Sequence record: OZ035807.1
Strand: one strand, 5' to 3'
Source of the DNA: Vectrevirus LI10P3
DNA: 44,534 nucleotides
A program made the translations under genes and the position numbers. Each line of letters opens with the position of its first letter. The first letter of the stretch is position 1. This document shows positions 30 to 21,424 of the stretch, one piece after another. The notes beneath the pieces were generated by a model. The model ran no database searches, was not told where the DNA came from, and saw nothing but the letters and a program-made list of their open reading frames with translations.

Positions 30-329
30 GTGAGCGTACACAATAAACATGCAGCTACAGAGGATGAGGTTGGCATTCTGCATGGTGCTATTACCAAAAT
101 CTTCAATAAGAAAGCACAGGCAATACTGGACACTATAGAAGAAGACCCTGATGCAGCATTACATTTAGTGTCTGGTAAGGATATTGGTGCGATGTGTAAG
201 TGGGTTCTTGATAACGGCATTACCGCCACACCTGCTGCACAGCAGGAAGAGTCCAAGTTATCTAAGCGCCTCAAGGCTATCCGAGAGGCATCCAGTGGCA
301 AGATTATTCAGTTTACAAAAGAGGAGTGA
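30..329 (+). CDS. putative terminase small subunit (T7 gp18 position)
   Basis: 99-aa ORF with GTG start and AGGAGAG RBS about 6 nt upstream; lies immediately upstream of the HNH and large terminase genes. Call is by synteny only, no motif recognised. Confidence 0.45.
   Translation: MSVHNKHAATEDEVGILHGAITKIFNKKAQAILDTIEEDPDAALHLVSGKDIGAMCKWVLDNGITATPAAQQEESKLSKRLKAIREASSGKIIQFTKEE
122..144 (+). promoter_or_regulatory. phage RNAP promoter-like sequence inside small terminase gene
   Basis: ACTGGACACTATAGAAGAAG matches the core of the repeated promoter consensus; upstream ATTTAC part is not conserved (GCAATA). Confidence 0.35.
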
Positions 330-330
330 T

Positions 331-774
331 ATGCATAGATGGTGTGAATCTCAAGGTTATACCATCTTACCTTCTGGTGTCATCCTTTCAAAGGGTGGCA
401 CCCCTCTCAAACCATTCAAGGCGGGTAGGGGTTATTTAGCAGTTAAAATTAAAAATAAAGAAGGTAAATGGCGTAATGTCTATGTTCATCAATTAGTGGC
501 TTATAAGTATTTACCTAAAACTAATAATGAAGTAAACCACAAAGACGGCGATAAGCACAACAATGATGTTAGCAACTTGGAGTGGGTAACAAGAAGCGAG
601 AATAACTATTTAAAATGCAATGGAAATGATAGGAGTGCCTTAAATAGCTATTTAGCAAGATTAAAAGATTGCTTCTTGCAAGGTAAGGGTGTAGCAGAAA
701 CCGCTAGACTTACTGGTAAAAGTGAACCAAGAGTTTCTTCTCTCTTTAAGGAGTGGCGAAATGGCAAAGGCTAG
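331..774 (+). CDS. HNH homing endonuclease
   Basis: ATG at 331 with GAGGAG RBS 4 nt upstream; motif NHKDGDKHNNDVSNLEWVTRSENN is a typical HNH signature; sits between small and large terminase genes and overlaps both. Confidence 0.7.
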   Translation: MHRWCESQGYTILPSGVILSKGGTPLKPFKAGRGYLAVKIKNKEGKWRNVYVHQLVAYKYLPKTNNEVNHKDGDKHNNDVSNLEWVTRSENNYLKCNGNDRSALNSYLARLKDCFLQGKGVAETARLTGKSEPRVSSLFKEWRNGKG

Positions 775-2659
775 AGAATCACAGGCAGAGGCATTAAAGC
801 GGTGGGAAAACCTTAAAGAACTACAAGACACTTTTAAATATACAGCGGAAGGTTTGCTTCTCTTTGCAGATACAGTTATTCATAACTTAATTGCAGGCAA
901 CCCTCATCTGATTCGTATGCAGGCGGATATCTTGAAGTTCCTATTTTACGGACACAAGTACCGCCTCATCGAAGCGCCTCGTGGTATCGCTAAGACAACA
1001 CTATCAGCAATCTATACGGTATTCCGTATTATTCATGAACCGCATAAGCGTATCATGGTTGTGTCCCAAAACGCCAAGCGAGCAGAGGAAATCGCAGGTT
1101 GGGTAGTTAAAATCTTCCGTGGCTTAGACTTTCTTGAGTTTATGCTGCCGGATATCTACGCTGGGGACCGTGCATCAGTTAAGGCGTTTGAGATTCATTA
1201 CACCCTACGTGGTAGTGATAAGTCTCCTTCTGTATCCTGTTACTCAATCGAAGCAGGTATGCAGGGTGCTCGTGCTGATATTATTCTAGCGGATGACGTA
1301 GAGTCGATGCAGAATGCTCGTACGGCAGCGGGCCGTGCCTTGCTTGAGGAGCTGACTAAGGAGTTTGAATCTATCAACCAGTTTGGGGATATCATTTACC
1401 TTGGTACACCTCAGAACGTAAACTCTATCTACAACAACCTACCTGCTCGTGGTTACTCTGTTCGTATCTGGACTGCGCGTTACCCTTCAGTAGAGCAAGA
1501 GCAATGTTATGGCGACTTCCTTGCACCTATGATTGTGCAAGATATGAAGGACAACCCAGCACTTCGCTCAGGGTACGGGTTGGATGGTAATAGTGGTGCA
1601 CCTTGTGCCCCTGAAATGTATGATGATGAAGTCCTGATTGAGAAGGAAATCTCTCAGGGTGCTGCTAAGTTCCAGCTTCAGTTCATGCTTAACACTCGCA
1701 TGATGGATGCTGACAGATACCCATTACGCCTGAACAATCTAATCTTCACCTCGTTTGGTACAGAGGAAGTCCCTGTGATGCCTACGTGGAGTAATGATTC
1801 CATAAACATCATTGGTGATGCACCTAAGTATGGTAACAAGCCTACGGATTTCATGTACAGACCTGTAGCTCGCCCATACGAATGGGGTGCTGTCTCCCGC
1901 AAGATTATGTATATTGACCCTGCGGGTGGTGGTAAGAACGGAGACGAGACGGGTGTAGCCATCGTATTCCTGCACGGCACATTCATTTATGTGTATCAGT
2001 GCTTTGGTGTACCTGGCGGATACCGAGAGTCGTCCCTGAATCGCATTGTGCAGGCCGCAAAGCAGGCGGGTGTTAAAGAGGTATTCATTGAGAAGAACTT
2101 TGGTCATGGCGCGTTTGAGGCGGTAATTAAGCCGTACTTTGAACGAGAGTGGCCTGTAACTCTGGAAGAGGATTACGCCACCGGACAGAAAGAGTTGCGT
2201 ATCATTGAGACGCTGGAGCCGCTCATGGCAGCACATAGGCTTATCTTCAATGCAGAGATGGTGAAGTCAGACTTTGAGTCGGTACAGCACTATCCGCTTG
2301 AACTACGCATGTCCTACAGTCTTTTCAATCAAATGTCGAACATAACGATTGAGAAGAACAGCCTCCGGCACGATGACCGCCTAGACGCCCTGTATGGCGC
2401 TATACGGCAATTAACTTCTCAGATAGACTATGACGAGGTTACACGGATTAATCGCCTCAGAGCGCAGGAGATGCGCGATTACATCCATGCTATGAATACA
2501 CCTCATCTACGCAGGGCAATGCTATATGGAGATTACGGTACTGAGCGAAGAGTGACCAACACTTCCGTAGCGATGCAGCAGCGAGTTTACGGGCAGAACT
2601 ACCGAAATAAATCGGCAAGCAGAAATACACTTTCTGCAAGGATTTCAAGGACTTATTAA
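761..2659 (+). CDS. terminase large subunit (T7 gp19-like)
   Basis: 632 aa from ATG 761 with AAGGAG RBS; Walker-A-like EAPRGIAKTT near N-terminus; size and position conserved. Confidence 0.85.
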   Translation: MAKARESQAEALKRWENLKELQDTFKYTAEGLLLFADTVIHNLIAGNPHLIRMQADILKFLFYGHKYRLIEAPRGIAKTTLSAIYTVFRIIHEPHKRIMVVSQNAKRAEEIAGWVVKIFRGLDFLEFMLPDIYAGDRASVKAFEIHYTLRGSDKSPSVSCYSIEAGMQGARADIILADDVESMQNARTAAGRALLEELTKEFESINQFGDIIYLGTPQNVNSIYNNLPARGYSVRIWTARYPSVEQEQCYGDFLAPMIVQDMKDNPALRSGYGLDGNSGAPCAPEMYDDEVLIEKEISQGAAKFQLQFMLNTRMMDADRYPLRLNNLIFTSFGTEEVPVMPTWSNDSINIIGDAPKYGNKPTDFMYRPVARPYEWGAVSRKIMYIDPAGGGKNGDETGVAIVFLHGTFIYVYQCFGVPGGYRESSLNRIVQAAKQAGVKEVFIEKNFGHGAFEAVIKPYFEREWPVTLEEDYATGQKELRIIETLEPLMAAHRLIFNAEMVKSDFESVQHYPLELRMSYSLFNQMSNITIEKNSLRHDDRLDALYGAIRQLTSQIDYDEVTRINRLRAQEMRDYIHAMNTPHLRRAMLYGDYGTERRVTNTSVAMQQRVYGQNYRNKSASRNTLSARISRTY

Positions 2660-2680: not shown

Positions 2681-2816
2681 AGGCCCAGATAATAAGAGAA
2701 AATAATAGGTAATATATAGTTTAACCTAGGTTATATAGGTATGCCTTAGTATGGGTGTACTCCTGTACACCCTATTCCTTACTACCTTACTATATTTACA
2801 TAATAGGAGAGAGACA

Positions 2817-3095
2817 ATGGCTAATGATTATAGTAGTCAACCATTAACAGGTAAGTCTAAGAGAAAGCAGGTACAACCTGTAAGTGAAGAACTAATGCTT
2901 CCGGTAATCAAAAAAGAGGAAGCTAGTAAGAAAAGCAATGTCATTAATGATGCCACCAAATCAGGTAAACAGAAAGGGGCCATGGTGTGCCTTGAAGTGG
3001 AAGGTGGTATATTGAAGATTGCTATCGCGGTTGATGGCAAAGAAGATTCAGAGTGGAAGTTAGTAACAGTGGAACCAGCTGTTAACCCAGTTTAA
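2817..3095 (+). CDS. hypothetical protein, paralog A
   Basis: ATG 2817 with AGGAGAGAG RBS; shares the block SGKQKGAMVxLE...L(K/H)IA(I/V)A with the next ORF. Confidence 0.6.
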   Translation: MANDYSSQPLTGKSKRKQVQPVSEELMLPVIKKEEASKKSNVINDATKSGKQKGAMVCLEVEGGILKIAIAVDGKEDSEWKLVTVEPAVNPV

Positions 3096-3113: not shown

Positions 3114-3401
3114 ATGGCTAAATATGGTACTACAGGTTCTGTTACTGGTCAGGCTTTTCGAGTAAAAGCAGTACAAACTATTGCAACGGCAATCCCGATG
3201 CCTGTTGTTAAAGAAGCAGACCTTAATAGTAAAGATCACCCTATCAACATCAAACATTTATCAGGTAAACAGAAAGGTGCAATGGTTGCTCTTGAGAAAA
3301 GTGACACAACCTTACATATTGCTGTTGCACGTGGTAGTGAACCAACAGACCCTTGGGATTTAACTGGCATGGAATCGCTCGCTGTCACTCCAGCAGGTTG
3401 A
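3114..3401 (+). CDS. hypothetical protein, paralog B
   Basis: ATG 3114 with TAAGGAGGAAG RBS; clear sequence similarity to 2817..3095 (LSGKQKGAMVALE). Confidence 0.6.
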   Translation: MAKYGTTGSVTGQAFRVKAVQTIATAIPMPVVKEADLNSKDHPINIKHLSGKQKGAMVALEKSDTTLHIAVARGSEPTDPWDLTGMESLAVTPAG

Positions 3402-3406
3402 GAATA

Positions 3407-3751
3407 ATGCTTAACAAATACTTCAAGCGCCGTGAGTTCGCTTGCCGATGTGGGTGCGGTACATCCACTGTTGATGCTGAGTTATTACAGGTAGTCACAG
3501 ATGTGCGTGAGCACTTTGGTGTTCCTGTGGTTATTACTTCTGGTCATCGCTGTGCTAAGCACAATGCTAATGTAGGAGGAGCTAAGAACTCCATGCATCT
3601 TACTGGTAAGGCTGCTGACATTAAGGCACGAGGCATCTTACCATCTGAAGTGCATAAGTATCTTACTGATAAGTACCAAGGCAAATATGGGATTGGTAAG
3701 TACAACTCCTTCACCCACATTGATGTACGGGATGGGTGTGCACGATGGTAG
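3407..3751 (+). CDS. endolysin, zinc peptidase M15 family
   Basis: 114 aa; motif SGHRCAKHNANVGGAKNSMHLTGKAADI ... FTHIDVR is the His/Asp/His zinc-ligand pattern of small M15 peptidases. Confidence 0.75.
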   Translation: MLNKYFKRREFACRCGCGTSTVDAELLQVVTDVREHFGVPVVITSGHRCAKHNANVGGAKNSMHLTGKAADIKARGILPSEVHKYLTDKYQGKYGIGKYNSFTHIDVRDGCARW

Positions 3752-3859
3752 GTTGTGTTGCATGGTGTGAACGCATGGTTGCTAAGGCTTCAGAGGAAGG
3801 CAACTATGAAGATTGGCAGAACTACTCAACTTTATTAGCTCAATGGAAAGGGAGATGCA

Positions 3860-4009
3860 ATGAAAAAGCTGTTCAAATCTAAGAAGGTTGTAGGTGCACT
3901 AGTTGCATTGGCAATTGCTCTTGTTTCTGTAGGTCTTGGTGTAGACCTTGGCTCTGGCACGGAATCCTCTGTGACAGACGTGGTCTGCCAAGTGATCACC
4001 TGTGAATAA
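3860..4009 (+). CDS. small secreted/membrane protein (lysis cassette)
   Basis: 49-aa ORF MKKLFKSKKVVGALVALAIALVSVG... with signal-peptide-like N-terminus; GGGAGA RBS; below ORF-track size cutoff. Confidence 0.4.
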   Translation: MKKLFKSKKVVGALVALAIALVSVGLGVDLGSGTESSVTDVVCQVITCE

Positions 4010-4223
4010 GTTTCTAGAAGTGCTGGCAGGTCTTATTGGCCTGCTTGTCTCTGCTAAGAAGAAACAAGAAGAGAAGGAGGCACAAAGTGAAGCGAATCAT
4101 GTTAGTGACAATCCTGCTGATTGGTTCGCTGACCACTTCCGGGTGTCAGCAGGCGTTACCAGAGAAAGCAATGGTGAAACCCCTGAGGCCGACGCTGACG
4201 GAAGTTTACGAGGTAGACGATAA
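4002..4223 (+). CDS. possible i-spanin-like membrane protein
   Basis: 73 aa, N-terminal hydrophobic segment then charged region; GTG start without clear RBS; contains the lipoprotein ORF in +1 frame. Confidence 0.3.
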   Translation: MNKFLEVLAGLIGLLVSAKKKQEEKEAQSEANHVSDNPADWFADHFRVSAGVTRESNGETPEADADGSLRGRR

Positions 4224-4296
4224 GGTCTGCTTTAGTAAGCCTGACGCTACAAAATTAGGTTTGTATATTCTTTCGCTAGAACGCGGATATAATTAA
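4099..4296 (+). CDS. putative o-spanin (outer-membrane lipoprotein)
   Basis: 65 aa from internal ATG; hydrophobic signal followed by LTTSGC lipobox-like motif and Pro-rich segment; embedded in / overlapping the 4002 ORF, the usual spanin arrangement. Confidence 0.45.
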   Translation: MLVTILLIGSLTTSGCQQALPEKAMVKPLRPTLTEVYEVDDKVCFSKPDATKLGLYILSLERGYN

Positions 4297-4325: not shown

Positions 4326-4349
4326 ATTTACTGGACACTATAGAAGAGG
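4326..4349 (+). promoter_or_regulatory. phage RNAP promoter
   Basis: TTTACTGGACACTATAGAAGAG upstream of tailspike 1. Confidence 0.7.
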
Positions 4350-8135: not shown

Positions 8136-8285
8136 ATGCCATTAATCAAATCAGTTAAGCAAAGTGCTGTACACCAGAACACAGAAGAACTCATTCAATC
8201 AGGACGTGACCCTAAGCAAGCCTATGCGATTGCCAAGGATGTACAACGTCGTGCTATGAAGAAACCTTCTGCATCTTCTGCGTAA
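8136..8285 (+). CDS. hypothetical small protein
   Basis: 49-aa ORF (MPLIKSVKQSAVHQ...) with AGGAAG RBS; no recognisable motif. Confidence 0.3.
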   Translation: MPLIKSVKQSAVHQNTEELIQSGRDPKQAYAIAKDVQRRAMKKPSASSA

Positions 8286-9131
8286 GCAGGTTAATATCTT
8301 AGTGTACACAAGGGCAGACCTAGGTTTGCTCTTAGTGTATTTACAATGGAGGTCTTATGTATATACCTATGGAAGCAATAGTAGGTTGCCTATGCTTGTT
8401 GATAGGTTTCGTTATAGGCTTACTAGTAAATCCTTAGTCCTGTACAAGGATTAACCAAAGTCAAAATTTTAATATAGGCGTGTGTGAGGTGTCTCGCCCT
8501 CGCCCTCGCCGGATTTCCCCCATATGGGGCCGCGTTGCGGTTGGCTTGGGAATTGGGCTGGGCTGGTCCGTCTTCGACGGGTGGGCCGAGGTCTGCCGAG
8601 GCTTGCTCTTAGTGGGAGCACAAGGAGAACGCCTAGGAAGCGCTAGGGCACGCCTTAGTATTGGACAAGGTGATTGCCTTAGTGAAGCCTCTTAGTGCAT
8701 TCCTGAGGTCATTCAGGGCGCTTATGAGGGATTGACAGGGTGGATGGGCGTGGGCTATCTGTTCGTTTCGTTCACTCCGCTTGCGCTACGTTCACTCGCT
8801 CACGTGTACCTTAGGTTATTCCTTGATGGATAGCTTAGGTTAGCCTTAGTGGATTACCTTAGTTAAAGCCTTAGTGCTTCACTTAGTATCAGCTTAGTAG
8901 TGTACCTTAGTAAGTATTAGTGTCTTCTCTTAGTGATTGCACATGCAAGCATGTAAGATGCCATTAGGTCGCGGTCGGTAGACCGCTAAAGAAGGAGAAT
9001 AGTAATAAGATGCAGTAGGAGGAACACCAGAAACCTAGCCAACCTAGCCTATCCTAGCTCTGTATCTATTGCTTTTCCTTAGTCTAACATGTGAGACAAC
9101 CTAGATTTATCTTAGTGATGATATCTTAGTG

Positions 9132-9160
9132 TTGACAAGGCCATCTCAATATAATACTAT
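9132..9160 (+). promoter_or_regulatory. candidate host sigma70 early promoter
   Basis: TTGACA - 17 bp - TACTAT read directly. Confidence 0.4.
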
Positions 9161-9199
9161 TCATCACGTAGGCAGCACTGAGGTGCTTAGTAGCCAGCT

Positions 9200-9260
9200 A
9201 GTAAGGCATACGAAGAGACTAGCGCTTACATTGCTCTTTAACAATTTGCTTAGTGTAACC
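9200..9260 (+). promoter_or_regulatory. RNase III-like processing element
   Basis: Contains GCTCTTTAACAAT, a motif I recall from the T7 R0.3 RNase III site; recurs three times upstream of early genes. Confidence 0.35.
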
Positions 9261-14590: not shown

Positions 14591-14639
14591 CTACTACCGG
14601 TAACATTTCATTAACATAAAGTGTCTCACATGTGAGACT

Positions 14640-15006: not shown

Positions 15007-16995
15007 ATGGCTATTATTCAGAATGTACCGTGTCCTGCTTGCCAAAAGAATGGACATGATATTACTGGCAACCATCTTATGATATTTGAGGATGGCGCTG
15101 GTTACTGTAACCGTGGTCACTTCCATGATAATGGGAAGCCTTATTACCATAAGCCAGAGGGTGGCATCGAGATAACCGAGTTACCTATTACTGGCAATAT
15201 CAAATATACACCTTCTCAATTCAAAGAAATGGAGAAGGAAGGGAAGATAAGCGACCCTAAGCTACGCGCCATCGCTCTTGGTGGTATGCGTATGAAAGAC
15301 CGTTGGGAGGTCATGAATGAGCAAGAAAGGGCAGACCAAGAAGCAGAGTGGAAACTTGATGTTGAATGGTTCCTCACGCTTAAGCGTAAGAACCTTGTAT
15401 CCCGTCACATTCGAGGTGACATCGCAGCAATGTACGATGTGCGCGTTGGACACGATGAAGAGGGAAGAGTCAACCGTCACTATTATCCACGATATGAAAA
15501 GGGTGTGCTTGTTGGGGCAAAATGCCGGACGTTGCCGAAGGATTTTAAGTTCGGACACCTAGGTAAACTCTTTGGTATGCAAGATCTTTTCGGTATGAAC
15601 ACTTTGTCTCACGTGTTAGACAAGGGGAGACGAAAGGATTGCTTGCTTATTGTAGGCGGTGAACTTGATGCACTAGCAGCGCAGCAGATGCTCCTTGATT
15701 CTGCCAAGGGTACTAAGTGGGAAGGCCAGCCATACCATGTATGGTCTGTCAACAAAGGCGAGTCTTGTCTTGAAGAGATAGTGCAAAACCGTGAGCATAT
15801 CGCCCAATTCAAGAAGATTATATGGGGTTTTGATGGAGATGAGGTAGGGCAGAAGCAGAATCAGCAAGCGGCTCGCCTGTTTCCTGGCAAATCCTATATC
15901 CTTGAATACCCCTCTGGTTGCAAAGATGCTAACAAGGCATTGATGGCTGGCAAGGCCAAAGAGTTTGTTGATGCATGGTTTAATGCCAAGTCATCTGATG
16001 AAGTCTTTGGTAGCCAGATTAAATCTATCGCCTCTCAAAGGGATAAGCTCAAGGCTGCACGTCCAGAGCAAGGACTATCATGGCCTTGGCCTAAGCTGAA
16101 CAAGGTAACGCTAGGTATTCGTAAGAACCAACTTATCATTGTAGGCGCAGGCTCTGGTGTAGGTAAGACTGAGTTCCTTCGTGAAGTAGTTAAGCACCTC
16201 ATTGAAGAACACGGTGAATCTGTAGGCATCATTTCTACAGAAGACCCGATGGTCAAGGTGTCCCGTGCTTTTATCGGCAAGTGGGTTGATAAGCGTATTG
16301 AGTTACCGCCAACCAACGACCCGAAAGAAGATGGATACCGTGAGGTGTTCGACTACACCGAGGAAGAGGCTAACGCCGCCATTGATTATGTAGCTGATAC
16401 AGGTAAGCTGTTTGTAGCTGACCTAGAGGGTGACTATTCGATGGAAAAGGTAGAGCAAACTTGCCTAGAGTTTGAGGCTATGGGCATTTCTAATATCATC
16501 ATTGATAACTTAACGGGGATTAAATTAGATGAGCGTGCTTTTGGTGGGAAGGTTGGTGCACTTGATGAATGCGTCAAGCGGATTGGTACTATCAAAGACC
16601 GACACCCGGTTACTATATTCCTTGTATCACACCTTACACGTCCTCCGGCAAACCGTACCCAACACGAAGAAGGTGGCGAAGTTATCCTTTCTGACTTCCG
16701 AGGCTCAGGCGCTATCGGATTCTGGGCATCTTACGCCTTGGGGATTGAGCGTAATACAAGAGCTGAAACGCTTGACGAAAGGACTACCACGTACATCTCA
16801 TGTGTCAAAGACCGCGACCAAGGTATCTACACTGGAACCAAGGTCATGCTTAAGGGTGACATTCAAACCGGACGTTTAATGGAACCACAAGCCCGTACTA
16901 AGTCATTTGATACAGGTGAAGCAAGGCAACAAGAAGTGCCGGATTTACCGGACACTATAGAAGAGACAACCTTTGACGATGAACAGGAGTTTTAA
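15007..16995 (+). CDS. DNA primase/helicase (T7 gp4-like)
   Basis: 662 aa; N-terminal zinc ribbon CPACQ...C..GH; Walker A GAGSGVGKTEF; DnaB-like C-terminal half. Confidence 0.9.
   Translation: MAIIQNVPCPACQKNGHDITGNHLMIFEDGAGYCNRGHFHDNGKPYYHKPEGGIEITELPITGNIKYTPSQFKEMEKEGKISDPKLRAIALGGMRMKDRWEVMNEQERADQEAEWKLDVEWFLTLKRKNLVSRHIRGDIAAMYDVRVGHDEEGRVNRHYYPRYEKGVLVGAKCRTLPKDFKFGHLGKLFGMQDLFGMNTLSHVLDKGRRKDCLLIVGGELDALAAQQMLLDSAKGTKWEGQPYHVWSVNKGESCLEEIVQNREHIAQFKKIIWGFDGDEVGQKQNQQAARLFPGKSYILEYPSGCKDANKALMAGKAKEFVDAWFNAKSSDEVFGSQIKSIASQRDKLKAARPEQGLSWPWPKLNKVTLGIRKNQLIIVGAGSGVGKTEFLREVVKHLIEEHGESVGIISTEDPMVKVSRAFIGKWVDKRIELPPTNDPKEDGYREVFDYTEEEANAAIDYVADTGKLFVADLEGDYSMEKVEQTCLEFEAMGISNIIIDNLTGIKLDERAFGGKVGALDECVKRIGTIKDRHPVTIFLVSHLTRPPANRTQHEEGGEVILSDFRGSGAIGFWASYALGIERNTRAETLDERTTTYISCVKDRDQGIYTGTKVMLKGDIQTGRLMEPQARTKSFDTGEARQQEVPDLPDTIEETTFDDEQEF
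16943..16965 (+). promoter_or_regulatory. phage RNAP promoter (inside 3' end of helicase gene)
   Basis: ATTTACCGGACACTATAGAAGAG. Confidence 0.6.
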
Positions 16996-17156
16996 TGGAA
17001 ATTATTAAACCAGTATTGAATATCGGTATTGAGATCCTATTCATGCTTGTGATCGCAGATTATGCTGCACGATATGGATTCAAGAAAGCTGTGAAACTTA
17101 TCGTTGCATCTGGTTTTCTTATGTCAATGTTCTTTATTGTAACACGCCTTATCTAG
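16995..17156 (+). CDS. small two-helix membrane protein
   Basis: 53-aa ORF MEIIKPVLNIGIEILFMLVIADYAARYGFKKAVKLIVASGFLMSMFFIVTRLI; start overlaps primase stop. Confidence 0.4.
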   Translation: MEIIKPVLNIGIEILFMLVIADYAARYGFKKAVKLIVASGFLMSMFFIVTRLI

Positions 17157-18677: not shown

Positions 18678-21210
18678 TTGGAAGAAGGAGGCAGAAGGTC
18701 GTATCCTCGTGATGGATGCGGAAGCTAAAGGACTCCTTGACGCTATCCGATATGGACACCGTGAAGATGTGCATATCATTTGCTGCATGGATTTGCTTAC
18801 TACCGAGGAGTTTCTCTTCTTTGACCCGTATGAGATGCGTGACCCTGAAGCAAGAGAACGCCTGAAGGAATGGGAAGGTCATCAAGACGGAACCTTGGTT
18901 GATGGTGTTAACTTCCTGAAGCATTGTGAAGCTATTGTGTCACAGAACTTCCTAGGGTATGACGGACTTCTCTTTGAGAAAGCATTCCCTGATATTTGGA
19001 AAGGCTTTAACTATACCGAGAAGCGCGGTAAGGGCAGACTCCGTGCTGACCTGTGTCCGGTGCGAGTCATGGATACGCTGGTGATGAGTCGCCTGTTAAA
19101 CCCTGATAGACGCCTTCCTCCGCAAGCATATGCCAAAGGTATGGGTAACGTCGCCCCTCACTCAATTGAGGCGCACGGCATCCGTATAGGCCGCTATAAA
19201 CCGGAGAACGAGGACTGGTCTAAACTAACTGACCACATGGTTCACCGTGTACGTGAGGACGTGGCGATTGGTCGTGACTTGTTCCTCTGGCTCTTTAACG
19301 GGGAATGGATGGAGCACAAACGCCGTGGCGTGAATAAACGCACTGGCCTAGGTATTGAGACAGCCTTCCACATGGAGTCCATTGTGGCGCTGGAGATGAG
19401 CCGTCAGGCAGAGCGTGGATTCCGTCTGGATATTGACAAAGCACTAGCGCGATGCGAAGAACTGGACGCTAAGATTGATGAGACAGTCGCAGCGTTCCGC
19501 CCTCACATGCCTATGCGTATCAAGTCTAAACCTTTTAAACCGGAAGAAAAGAATGAAGTATGCCAACGCGCAAATGAGTATGGAGCTAGCAACAATATAC
19601 CTACTGTCCTTGACCCCTCACACTTTCTTCATGCCGAGAGACGAGGAGATCGCAAGACAGTATGGAGTGTCACTACTAAGTCTGGTGATTGGTCGGCTAG
19701 TGTCAAGAAAGACTTTCCTCACCTTAGAGGAAACCGTAATGACACGCCAAGCATCAAGTGGATTGGCGCTTACTCGCCTGTTACTTTCGAAGAGATTCCC
19801 TTGGGTAACAGGGATACAGTTAAGCAAGTGCTCTATGAGTATGGATGGAAAGGTGTTGAATTTAACGATACCGAGCAAGCTCATCTCGATGAGCACGGAG
19901 TGTTACCAAAACCTTGGAGTGGTAAGATAAATGAAAAGTCCCTCACTTTATGGCAAGAAAGAGCCGCACGTGAAGGTAAAACAGTCCCTGATTGGTGCTT
20001 GGGTATCGCTGCATGGTACATACTCGTATCCCGTCGTGGTCAGATACTCAACCGTGGTGACGTTGAAGCCTTCAACGAGAAGGGAACGTGGCCCTCGCAG
20101 GCTGGTGTACGAAAGTGTCGCGGCCTTGTACCTGTAGCATTCAACAAGGAGCTAGGAATCAATGCGCAGCAATACTACGAGAGGTACGGATGTTGGCCTA
20201 CGTCTGACAAAGATGACGGAGAGTGGCGTGTTCCAGCTGTTGCTATTAGTATTGGCACTTCTACGTTCCGTATGCGTCATCGTAACGTGGTTAATATTCC
20301 TGCCCGTGGCTTGTATCCTTTACGTGATTTATTCATAGCAGGGAAAGGCAAGCTAATCCTTGGTTGTGACGGTGCAGGTCTTGAACTGCGTGTCCTGTCT
20401 CACTTCATGAATGACCCTGAGTACCAAGAGATTGTACTGCACGGTGATATTCATACGCATAACCAGATGAAGGCTGGTCTTCCTAAGCGTGATATGGCGA
20501 AGACGTTTATATACGCCTTCCTCTATGGTTCTGGTATAGCCAACCTTGCAGCAGTCTGCGGTGTTACTGAGGAAGAAATGAAGGAAGTTGTGGCAAGATT
20601 CGAGATTGAACTACCGTCTCTTGCACGTCTTCGTGAGAATGTTATCGCACAAGGTAACAAGTTTGGCTACCTGCAAGCACCTGATGGGCATTGGGGTCGC
20701 ATCCGCATGTCTGGTGGTGAACTTAAAGAGCACACGATGCTTAACGTATTACTCCAGATGACTGGCTCTTTGTGTATGAAATATGCATTAGTCAAGGCAT
20801 TTGCAGTAATGCGCAAGGAAGGTGTAGCTTTGGATGCTATGGGAAATCCTTGTGGTGTGGCTAACGTGCATGATGAAATCCAGATGGAAGTTCCTGAAGA
20901 GGAGGTCTTGTATCTTAACTACGACCTACCTTTCACCTTAGATGGGTTCGAAACAGAGAAGGCTGCTGTGAAAGCAGTTTTCGATGCAGAGGAGAAACGT
21001 GTTCATGTGGATTCTGAAGGACGTATGTGGTCTGCTGCAAACCTCGTTAGCGTTGATGCTGATGCTGGTGTATTGCATTGCCAGCGCCGTTATCACCGTG
21101 CAGGTCATATCATTGCCGACGCCATGACTTGGGCAGGGCAGTATCTGAAGATGCGTTGCCCGATGGCAGGAGAATATAAGATTGGCGCAAGCTGGAAGGA
21201 AACACACTGA
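18664..21210 (+). CDS. DNA polymerase, family A (T7 gp5 / SP6-type)
   Basis: 848 aa from ATG 18664 (GGAGCAA RBS); exo motif VMDAEAKGL; pol motifs DGAGLELR, KTFIYAFLYGSG, VHDE. Confidence 0.9.
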   Translation: MKSIDWKKEAEGRILVMDAEAKGLLDAIRYGHREDVHIICCMDLLTTEEFLFFDPYEMRDPEARERLKEWEGHQDGTLVDGVNFLKHCEAIVSQNFLGYDGLLFEKAFPDIWKGFNYTEKRGKGRLRADLCPVRVMDTLVMSRLLNPDRRLPPQAYAKGMGNVAPHSIEAHGIRIGRYKPENEDWSKLTDHMVHRVREDVAIGRDLFLWLFNGEWMEHKRRGVNKRTGLGIETAFHMESIVALEMSRQAERGFRLDIDKALARCEELDAKIDETVAAFRPHMPMRIKSKPFKPEEKNEVCQRANEYGASNNIPTVLDPSHFLHAERRGDRKTVWSVTTKSGDWSASVKKDFPHLRGNRNDTPSIKWIGAYSPVTFEEIPLGNRDTVKQVLYEYGWKGVEFNDTEQAHLDEHGVLPKPWSGKINEKSLTLWQERAAREGKTVPDWCLGIAAWYILVSRRGQILNRGDVEAFNEKGTWPSQAGVRKCRGLVPVAFNKELGINAQQYYERYGCWPTSDKDDGEWRVPAVAISIGTSTFRMRHRNVVNIPARGLYPLRDLFIAGKGKLILGCDGAGLELRVLSHFMNDPEYQEIVLHGDIHTHNQMKAGLPKRDMAKTFIYAFLYGSGIANLAAVCGVTEEEMKEVVARFEIELPSLARLRENVIAQGNKFGYLQAPDGHWGRIRMSGGELKEHTMLNVLLQMTGSLCMKYALVKAFAVMRKEGVALDAMGNPCGVANVHDEIQMEVPEEEVLYLNYDLPFTLDGFETEKAAVKAVFDAEEKRVHVDSEGRMWSAANLVSVDADAGVLHCQRRYHRAGHIIADAMTWAGQYLKMRCPMAGEYKIGASWKETH

Positions 21211-21326
21211 TGGATAGGCTTGACATTATTTGCCTATTCTTCACTCTCTTTCTTACACTCCTTATGCTTGCTTGTTATGGGAGTCTGAGACTAGATATAC
21301 CTGATGAAGAAGAGGGTTACGACTAA
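21210..21326 (+). CDS. small hydrophobic peptide
   Basis: 38-aa ORF MDRLDIICLFFTLFLTLLMLACYG...; ATG overlaps DNA polymerase stop. Confidence 0.3.
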   Translation: MDRLDIICLFFTLFLTLLMLACYGSLRLDIPDEEEGYD

Positions 21327-21424
21327 TGCAAACTGCTTTTATTATTCTTGGTATCATATTATTTATGGTAGTACTCTGGGCCTTCTCTGGCATTGACCCG
21401 GATTGTGATGGTAACTACGACTGA
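21326..21424 (+). CDS. small hydrophobic peptide
   Basis: 32-aa ORF MQTAFIILGIILFMVVLWAF...; ATG overlaps previous stop (TAATG). Confidence 0.3.
   Translation: MQTAFIILGIILFMVVLWAFSGIDPDCDGNYD

Follow-up and report, generated by a model that had tools for sequence, protein, structure and literature searches.

The 26-codon reading frame at the right end of the Vectrevirus LI10P3 genome is, with high probability, a genuine and conserved accessory gene. Comparison with related phages points to an ortholog of SP6 gene 52, whose product would be essentially one transmembrane helix. The stretch analysed, called the window below, is the whole 44,534-nucleotide record OZ035807.1. Since its DNA matches Vectrevirus phages, K1E and SP6, we read it as the circularly permuted genome of an SP6/K1E-like podophage (Vectrevirus; Autographiviridae, Molineuxvirinae).

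The original prediction described a 26-residue hydrophobic frame preceded by GGAGG, and both the sequence and the list of open reading frames bear this out (Table 1). It had also judged the peptide to be the size of a single transmembrane helix. In agreement with this, the Kyte-Doolittle mean over 19 residues is 2.63 for residues 7-25, a transmembrane-sized value, and the GRAVY is 1.93; a 6-residue head (MYIPME) is followed by an 18-residue apolar core and a 2-residue tail. The claimed proximity to the genome terminus held as well, the frame being the last ORF of the genome and ending 54 nt before the terminal repeat mapped below. The similar small ORFs that had been pointed out elsewhere (16995..17156, 21210..21326 and 21326..21424) each match a PHROG family (E 2e-16 to 2.5e-38), and all of these families are annotated as of unknown function.

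Taken alone, a hydrophobic mini-ORF is not beyond chance in the window. Among the 509 six-frame ORFs of 20-60 aa, the 26-residue frame ranks 7th by its most hydrophobic 19-mer, and several of these small ORFs are obvious chance frames within large genes. We accept it as a gene because its conservation across genera, with a coding signature, exceeds chance. By itself this is a modest result, in which a guess from raw sequence becomes a well-supported small gene. SP6 gp52 was already annotated, though uncharacterised; what is added is the E. coli-phage members of the same family, a correction of their frame, the cassette structure of the right-end slot and a small-residue helix face that offers a mutational handle. 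Phage micro-proteins of fewer than 30 aa are routinely missed by gene callers, and this one shows clear purifying selection; the two phage genera that carry it are used in therapy and biocontrol.

Table 1. Features of the right-end locus, the late transcription unit and the lysis cluster (window coordinates unless records are named)
Feature	Position	Strand	Remarks
M15 endolysin gene	3353..3751		Lysis cluster (~3353..4296)
49-aa ORF, phrog_4712 'holin'	3860..4009	+	Profile match E=3e-27; between M15 endolysin and spanin pair
Spanin pair	4002..4223 and 4036..4296		Lysis cluster
Phage-RNA-polymerase promoter ATTTACTGGACACTATAGAAG	4326..4346	+	Nearest 5' of the 26-aa ORF; presumed origin of its transcript
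49-aa basic soluble protein gene, SP6 gp51-like	8136..8285	+	phrog_2423; left border of the variable slot
16-bp RNA hairpin, loop CTAG	8304..8340	+	Between gp51-like gene and cassette
Left CTTAGTGTA repeat	8331..8339	+	Bounds cassette; also 3' arm of the hairpin; further copy at 8298..8306
Shine-Dalgarno GGAGG	8348..8352	+	4 nt 5' of the ATG
26-aa ORF, probable SP6 gp52 ortholog	8357..8437 (stop included)	+	Predicted single-pass membrane micro-protein MYIPMEAIVGCLCLLIGFVIGLLVNP; ATG at 8357, TAG at 8435..8437
Right CCTTAGT repeat	8432..8438	+	Bounds cassette; contains the ORF stop
Conserved box AACCAAAGTCAAAATTTTAATATAGGCGTGTGTG, ~34 bp	8453..8486		Right border of the slot; near-unchanged in SP6 and K1E
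Direct terminal repeat, one collapsed copy	8492..8757		Inferred from K1E and SP6 ends
Alternative slot mini-ORFs	Loci L018, L020, L023, L027, L031 (IMG/VR); GenBank KY295891, MW394389, PQ197423, OP413828, MK373771		Same slot in relatives

Conservation, reading frame and family of the peptide

The DNA flanking the 26-aa ORF is matched by 137 phage records, the best matches being E. coli Vectrevirus phages (94-96% identity), with K1E, SP6 and their relatives lower. A tblastn search found the peptide itself in 25 phage records, namely 13 E. coli Vectrevirus and 12 Salmonella Zindervirus phages including SP6. The frame is intact, with its ATG and Shine-Dalgarno sequence kept (AAAGGAGATAAC or AAAGGAGGTAAC at the latter position in relatives), in 15 of 15 aligned sequences from the two genera, at a nucleotide identity to the SP6 group of only ~72%. 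Variable alignment columns are distributed over codon positions 1, 2 and 3 as 12/4/17, and the first-position changes are I/V/L swaps. Between the window and SP6, the ORF frame gave a pS of 0.62 and a pN of 0.17 (dN/dS ~0.15), whereas dN/dS was ~2.7-3.7 in the other open frame. A simulation was performed in which the observed 21-27 nucleotide differences were placed at random in 20,000 trials and amino-acid changes without a stop were scored. Equally few changes were obtained in 0 to 2 of the 20,000 trials for the comparisons with SP6 and Kenya-K30 (P ~1e-4 or less), and in 0.2% of trials for GRNsp51 (P 0.002). Twelve residues are invariant among the variants. On these sequence comparisons, purifying selection acts on the 26-residue frame only, and does so across two genera.

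The frame that competes for this DNA is a 50-aa ORF with a GTG start (8302..8454), which is free of stops in the window and several close relatives. It is the one picked by gene callers, and it is annotated in GenBank records OR594179 (SHAK7163_0060) and MZ234012 (101101UKE1_052), our loci L006 and L009. If it were the real gene, however, one would not expect the dN/dS of ~2.7-3.7 given above or the stops that break it in SP6, BP12B, UAB_Phi78, GRNsp51, Kenya-K30, T147P9 and T205P4; in addition, it matches no PHROG or Pfam family, and its start would fall inside the hairpin. Because stops interrupt it in these seven relatives, and in view of the comparative data, we reject the 50-aa ORF as a mis-call and give it practically no chance of being the gene. 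Most other Vectrevirus GenBank records have nothing annotated at the locus of the 26-aa ORF. Public annotation is thus corrected for the E. coli-phage orthologues, which were either missing or called in the wrong frame. As a separate observation, SHAK7163 is filed under Studiervirinae/Kayfunavirus and named vB_EcoM, yet its locus is Vectrevirus-like.

The peptide matches the profile of phrog_37692 (25 positions, unknown function) with E=6.7e-12 and 46 bits, residues 1-23 aligning on positions 1-23. SP6 gp52 (NP_853612.2, UniRef100_Q7Y5L8) is the 25-residue peptide MYIPMEAVVGIACLLVGFVIGLIAQ, of which 18 residues are identical to the 26-residue window peptide. In SP6 the gene has the same surroundings: it follows the gp51-like gene, is the last ORF before the right terminal repeat, and has the same Shine-Dalgarno arrangement and the same hairpin. 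The profile match, the synteny and the conservation of the frame together place the window peptide in this family. The two differ at the C-terminus (IAQ in SP6, LVNP in the window), in the host of the phage (Salmonella for the Zindervirus SP6, E. coli for the Vectrevirus of the window) and in their annotation, gp52 being annotated in SP6 whereas the Vectrevirus versions are unannotated or mis-framed in GenBank. In a 15-billion-sequence protein collection, only the SP6 sequence was present, under the name 'hypothetical protein', and the Vectrevirus versions were absent. The UAB_Phi78 genome paper gives the ORF as 'Unknown' (PMC4837284), and our literature search found no functional statement on gp52; a genome-reduction paper dealt with T7 and a Skatevirus rather than with an SP6-like phage.

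Searches beyond the family gave little. There was no match to the peptide in NCBIfam or the PDB, none above threshold in Pfam (a sub-threshold match to the glycine-zipper family DUF883_C had E=0.35) and none in Rfam for the region. Scans of viral, genome and metagenome collections confined the true members to SP6-like phage contigs, the metagenome scan adding only two. The genome-collection scan found no prophage or bacterial homologues, only chance transmembrane matches. The two matches dismissed as chance were a Halobacillus frame that shares MYIPMEAIV and an unrelated Thiohalomonadaceae protein of ~230 aa, whose C-terminal membrane anchor shares 76% of the transmembrane string. Five high-GC IMG/VR viral contigs (L046-L050, ~1489..1635) encode a 47-aa single-pass protein, MGKLEIPDVVAVGCVCLLVGFVIGLV…, just 5' of a terminase-small-subunit-like gene or overlapping its start. 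In the 47-aa protein, the core VAVGCVCLLVGFVIGLV gives a match to phrog_37692 (E=4e-4), and this transmembrane core is nearly identical to that of the gp52 family. Because the same transmembrane string anchors an unrelated bacterial protein at 76% identity, we do not accept homology here; the 47-aa protein may be distantly related or may have converged on a similar core, and its neighbours in these contigs gave no functional clue.

The right-end locus and its variable slot

The terminal repeat was mapped by homology to K1E and SP6, for which genome ends are on record with repeats of 288 bp and 174 bp, respectively. For K1E the left-end alignment starts at 8492, and at the right both phages terminate in ...GTGGGCTA, which corresponds to 8757. 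The conserved box, set between diverged flanks, ends a few bases 5' of this repeat; as a candidate cis site, it may serve terminase cutting or concatemer processing. At the other border, the K1E counterpart of the gp51-like gene (NC_007637, ~1517..1560; our locus L002) is unannotated and has an in-frame TAA at codon 16 (…CAGAACACATAAGAACTT…), which reflects either a pseudogene or a sequencing error.

The hairpin 3' of the gp51-like gene folds at -20 kcal/mol and is found in carriers and non-carriers of the peptide alike. Its 10-bp core pairs in 8/8 distinct sequences: at two pairs both partners have changed, and there are many G.U pairs as well as several alternations between G.U and G.C. Such reliance on G.U pairs suggests a structure formed in the RNA of the + sense transcript. 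The hairpin was flagged as terminator-like in the window, and we set aside its reading as an intrinsic terminator since the SP6 version has no T-run. It is likely to be an mRNA processing or stability element, or else a weak terminator, and possibly an RNase III site or mRNA 3'-stabiliser.

Between the gp51-like gene and the box, the peptide gene occupies a cassette of ~100 bp with CTTAGT repeats at its two ends. The expected number of CTTAGTG heptamers in the window is 7.8, whereas 20 are present; 11 of them are clustered on the + strand within 8298..9255, where they flank the terminal repeat on both sides. The terminal repeat of T7 is flanked by short repeat arrays, to which the CTTAGTG repeats of the window may be analogous. 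The content of the slot varies among relatives. In phage EC120 the hairpin is followed by the peptide module, then by a second one, which contains an 8-codon ORF (MQEENWDV), and finally by the box, whereas this second module is missing from the window. In K1E it is the peptide module that is missing, with the 8-codon ORF in its place, and the IMG/VR contig L021 lacks both modules and retains an orphan Shine-Dalgarno sequence. All slot junctions in K1E, EC120 and L021 lie at CTTAGT(GTA) repeats. We regard the peptide gene as accessory because the slot is modular and only 25 of the 137 records with matching flanks carry the peptide.

Further relatives have different mini-ORFs in this slot, mostly unannotated and with strong Shine-Dalgarno sites. 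One product is a soluble protein of 51 aa (phrog_3955); the others are three unrelated hydrophobic peptides, 29-32 aa long (MKDLLLALLCTACIYGPLLVYLYLAGRILV, MDKITIDKLTYYLLWAGCILNVTGFILGLFMK and MLYIMVGSLWVIMAFFFLAWLLGWRPSCS), and two of these were met again in GenBank phages that infect E. coli, Klebsiella and Raoultella. The repeat-bounded slot lends itself as a compact natural model for studying the function of single-helix phage peptides, and the window, K1E, EC120 and L021 types form natural isogenic-like pairs.

Late transcription and other elements of the genome

Thirteen SP6-type phage promoters (ATTTACTGGACACTATAGAAG and variants) were found in the window, all on the + strand. No phage promoter was found between that at 4326 and the 26-aa ORF, and no sigma-70-like site just 5' of the ORF. 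The absence of a phage promoter after 4326 places the gene, by position, in the last late transcription unit; it would be the final gene of the last-entering unit, transcribed late by the phage RNA polymerase. In the proposed sequence of events, the polymerase would start from the 4326 promoter, or further upstream, and read through the tailspike gene, the gp51-like gene and the hairpin, and the peptide would then be translated using its own GGAGG.

Several other elements of the genome were noted in passing. Between the terminase genes, an ORF (184..774, + strand) encodes an HNH_3 endonuclease domain (PF13392, E=4e-11); it overlaps, at its ends, the frames of the small terminase (30..329, PF11123) and the large terminase (722..2659). 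Two tandem paralogous ORFs on the + strand (2751..3095 and 3114..3401) have a 36-nt repeat in common (2960, 3260). Both match phrog_2725, labelled 'acetyl-CoA acetyltransferase', over only the first ~100 of 238 profile positions. The palindrome TGTCTCACATGTGAGACA occurs in eight intergenic copies (9081, 14622, 14805, 15605, 17173, 18317, 23155 and 40169), of which those at 14622, 14805 and 23155 lie directly 5' of phage promoters and one lies immediately 3' of ORF 16995..17156. These palindromes are probably transcript hairpins for processing or termination.

Predicted mode of action and candidate roles

Along the predicted helix, five positions are always occupied by small residues (A7, G10, C/S13, G17 and G21; G/A/S/C), and they fall within a 120-degree arc flanked by the invariant L14 and F18. 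Substitutions point to the opposite face of the helix. Because a permutation among these closely related sequences gave p=0.07, this asymmetry is only suggestive. The G17xxxG21 motif is invariant in all variants, but GxxxG is common in transmembrane helices and on its own is no sign of oligomerisation; the extended (G,A,S)xxxGxxxG form is canonical only in Kenya-K30 (S13xxxG17xxxG21), the others having C13. In the head, Y2 and P4 are invariant and E6 is replaced by K in one variant. The tail after the hydrophobic core consists of one or two residues (N-P, or Q, K-P, H-P, R-P, D-P), and no polar residue was found in the core of the peptide. Given such a short head and tail and no soluble domain, the action of the peptide would be confined to the bilayer of the inner membrane. 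The small-residue face could pack tightly against another helix, either of its own copies or of a partner protein. We put at about even the chance that the peptide acts inside the inner membrane through such helix-helix packing, as its sequence suggests.

The bacterial small membrane proteins AcrZ, MgtR, KdpF and CydX and the type I toxins TisB, Ibs and ShoB, of ~19-50 aa, are essentially one transmembrane helix each. Such regulators and toxins work either by packing their helix against a partner or through oligomerisation in the membrane. The window peptide resembles them in size and architecture only, no sequence relationship having been detected in Pfam or NCBIfam. It differs from them in being phage-encoded and, by position, late, with no antisense-RNA control evident. 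A polar face is attributed to pore-forming toxins such as TisB, whereas the core of the window peptide is fully apolar; this speaks for a peptide that docks or regulates rather than for one that forms a water-filled pore. Like holins and antiholins, the peptide would be a small, phage-encoded, late inner-membrane protein with at least one predicted transmembrane segment. Unlike holins, it has no hydrophilic charged C-terminal domain, and its gene is not beside the endolysin and spanin genes, which lie ~4 kb upstream. To our knowledge, known holins are ~57 aa or longer, and the window peptide is much shorter. A holin identity is rejected by the usual criteria, the charged C-terminal domain being absent and the gene standing outside the lysis cluster.

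A positional parallel is T7 gp19.5, a short, membrane-spanning and non-essential protein that experimental evolution implicates in lysis timing (PMC2680503). Like gp19.5, the peptide would be a small, late single-span protein, and its gene likewise comes last before the right terminal repeat in a genome of the T7 supergroup; the two proteins have no sequence similarity, and gp19.5, with 49 aa, is about twice as long. By this analogy, the peptide could, late in infection, modulate the lysis machinery or the state of the inner membrane and so fine-tune lysis timing. We tentatively give this role, a guess with clearly less than an even chance, a slight preference and weigh it about equally with binding of a host protein. 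Against it stands the position of the ORF outside the lysis cluster, and a slot filled by such different, unrelated peptides would be expected of accessory genes in an arms race more than of a housekeeping lysis function. As most relatives lack the gene, any effect is probably subtle or host-specific. The whole explanation, in which an accessory late gene orthologous to gp52 would encode a helix-packing peptide with a role in lysis timing, has in our estimate slightly less than an even chance of being correct.

It is also possible, though on balance unlikely, that the helix docks on a host inner-membrane protein, such as an abortive-infection or defence effector, a transporter or a protease, and thereby protects late infection or excludes other phages, in line with the original prediction, which had named superinfection-exclusion and host-inhibitor factors. 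AcrZ, MgtR, KdpF and the viral E5 protein act in this way, by docking on membrane partners. The accessory status and patchy distribution of the gene would fit such a target. So would the alternative unrelated hydrophobic ORFs of the slot in phages of E. coli, Klebsiella and Raoultella, a pattern typical of host-interaction genes, and this arms-race-like diversity fits host-protein binding better than lysis modulation; a helix face conserved in both Salmonella and E. coli phages would suit an enterobacteria-wide target. However, the failure to match Pfam, NCBIfam or the PDB and the lack of prophage or bacterial homologues, the genome-collection matches being chance transmembrane segments, count against a host target. 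Superinfection-exclusion proteins such as T4 Imm and Sp and HK97 gp15 are expressed early or from prophages, whereas the window peptide appears late by position; because the gene is last in the late, last-entering unit, classical superinfection exclusion is less likely. A more elaborate version, to which we assign a low probability, would make the slot a dedicated CTTAGT-bounded exchange site where mini-cassettes of ~100 bp, each with its own ribosome-binding site, are swapped and supply different single-helix membrane micro-proteins, the gp52-like peptide acting late in infection to neutralise a defence effector in the host inner membrane or some other membrane protein conserved among enterobacteria.

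Two further readings dispense with a function for the peptide. It might be translated and yet be a neutral passenger on a repeat-bounded DNA cassette, as the lack of the gene in most relatives, the 8-codon ORF in its place in K1E and the Shine-Dalgarno sequence without an ORF in L021 would allow; strong purifying selection over two genera at ~72% nucleotide identity, with 12 invariant residues, makes this quite improbable. That the stretch is not a gene at all, and serves as a cis-acting DNA or RNA element in concatemer processing, packaging or transcription termination, is suggested by its place, with a conserved hairpin on one side, a conserved box on the other and the terminal repeat 54 nt away, and by the precedent of a T7 hairpin near gene 19.5 that affects concatemer processing, according to a citation in PMC2680503. 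A cis element would not, however, account for substitutions that concentrate at third codon positions, with I/V/L swaps at first positions, or for the viability of K1E and L021 without the whole segment, and apart from the upstream hairpin the region has neither structure nor an Rfam match. Given the codon-position pattern and the absence of the segment from K1E, we reject a purely cis-acting element as very improbable.

The sequence relative of T7 gp19.5 lies elsewhere in the window. The peptide did not match phrog_2193 or phrog_4712, the families of T7 gp19.5. ORF 3860..4009 has the same length as gp19.5, 34% identity to it (BLASTP pairwise E=5e-5) and a shared C-terminal VVCxxxTC motif, so the T7 analogy of the 26-aa peptide is one of position and architecture, not of family. 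The location of this gp19.5 relative inside the lysis cluster lends support to the role in lysis that is suspected for T7 gp19.5.
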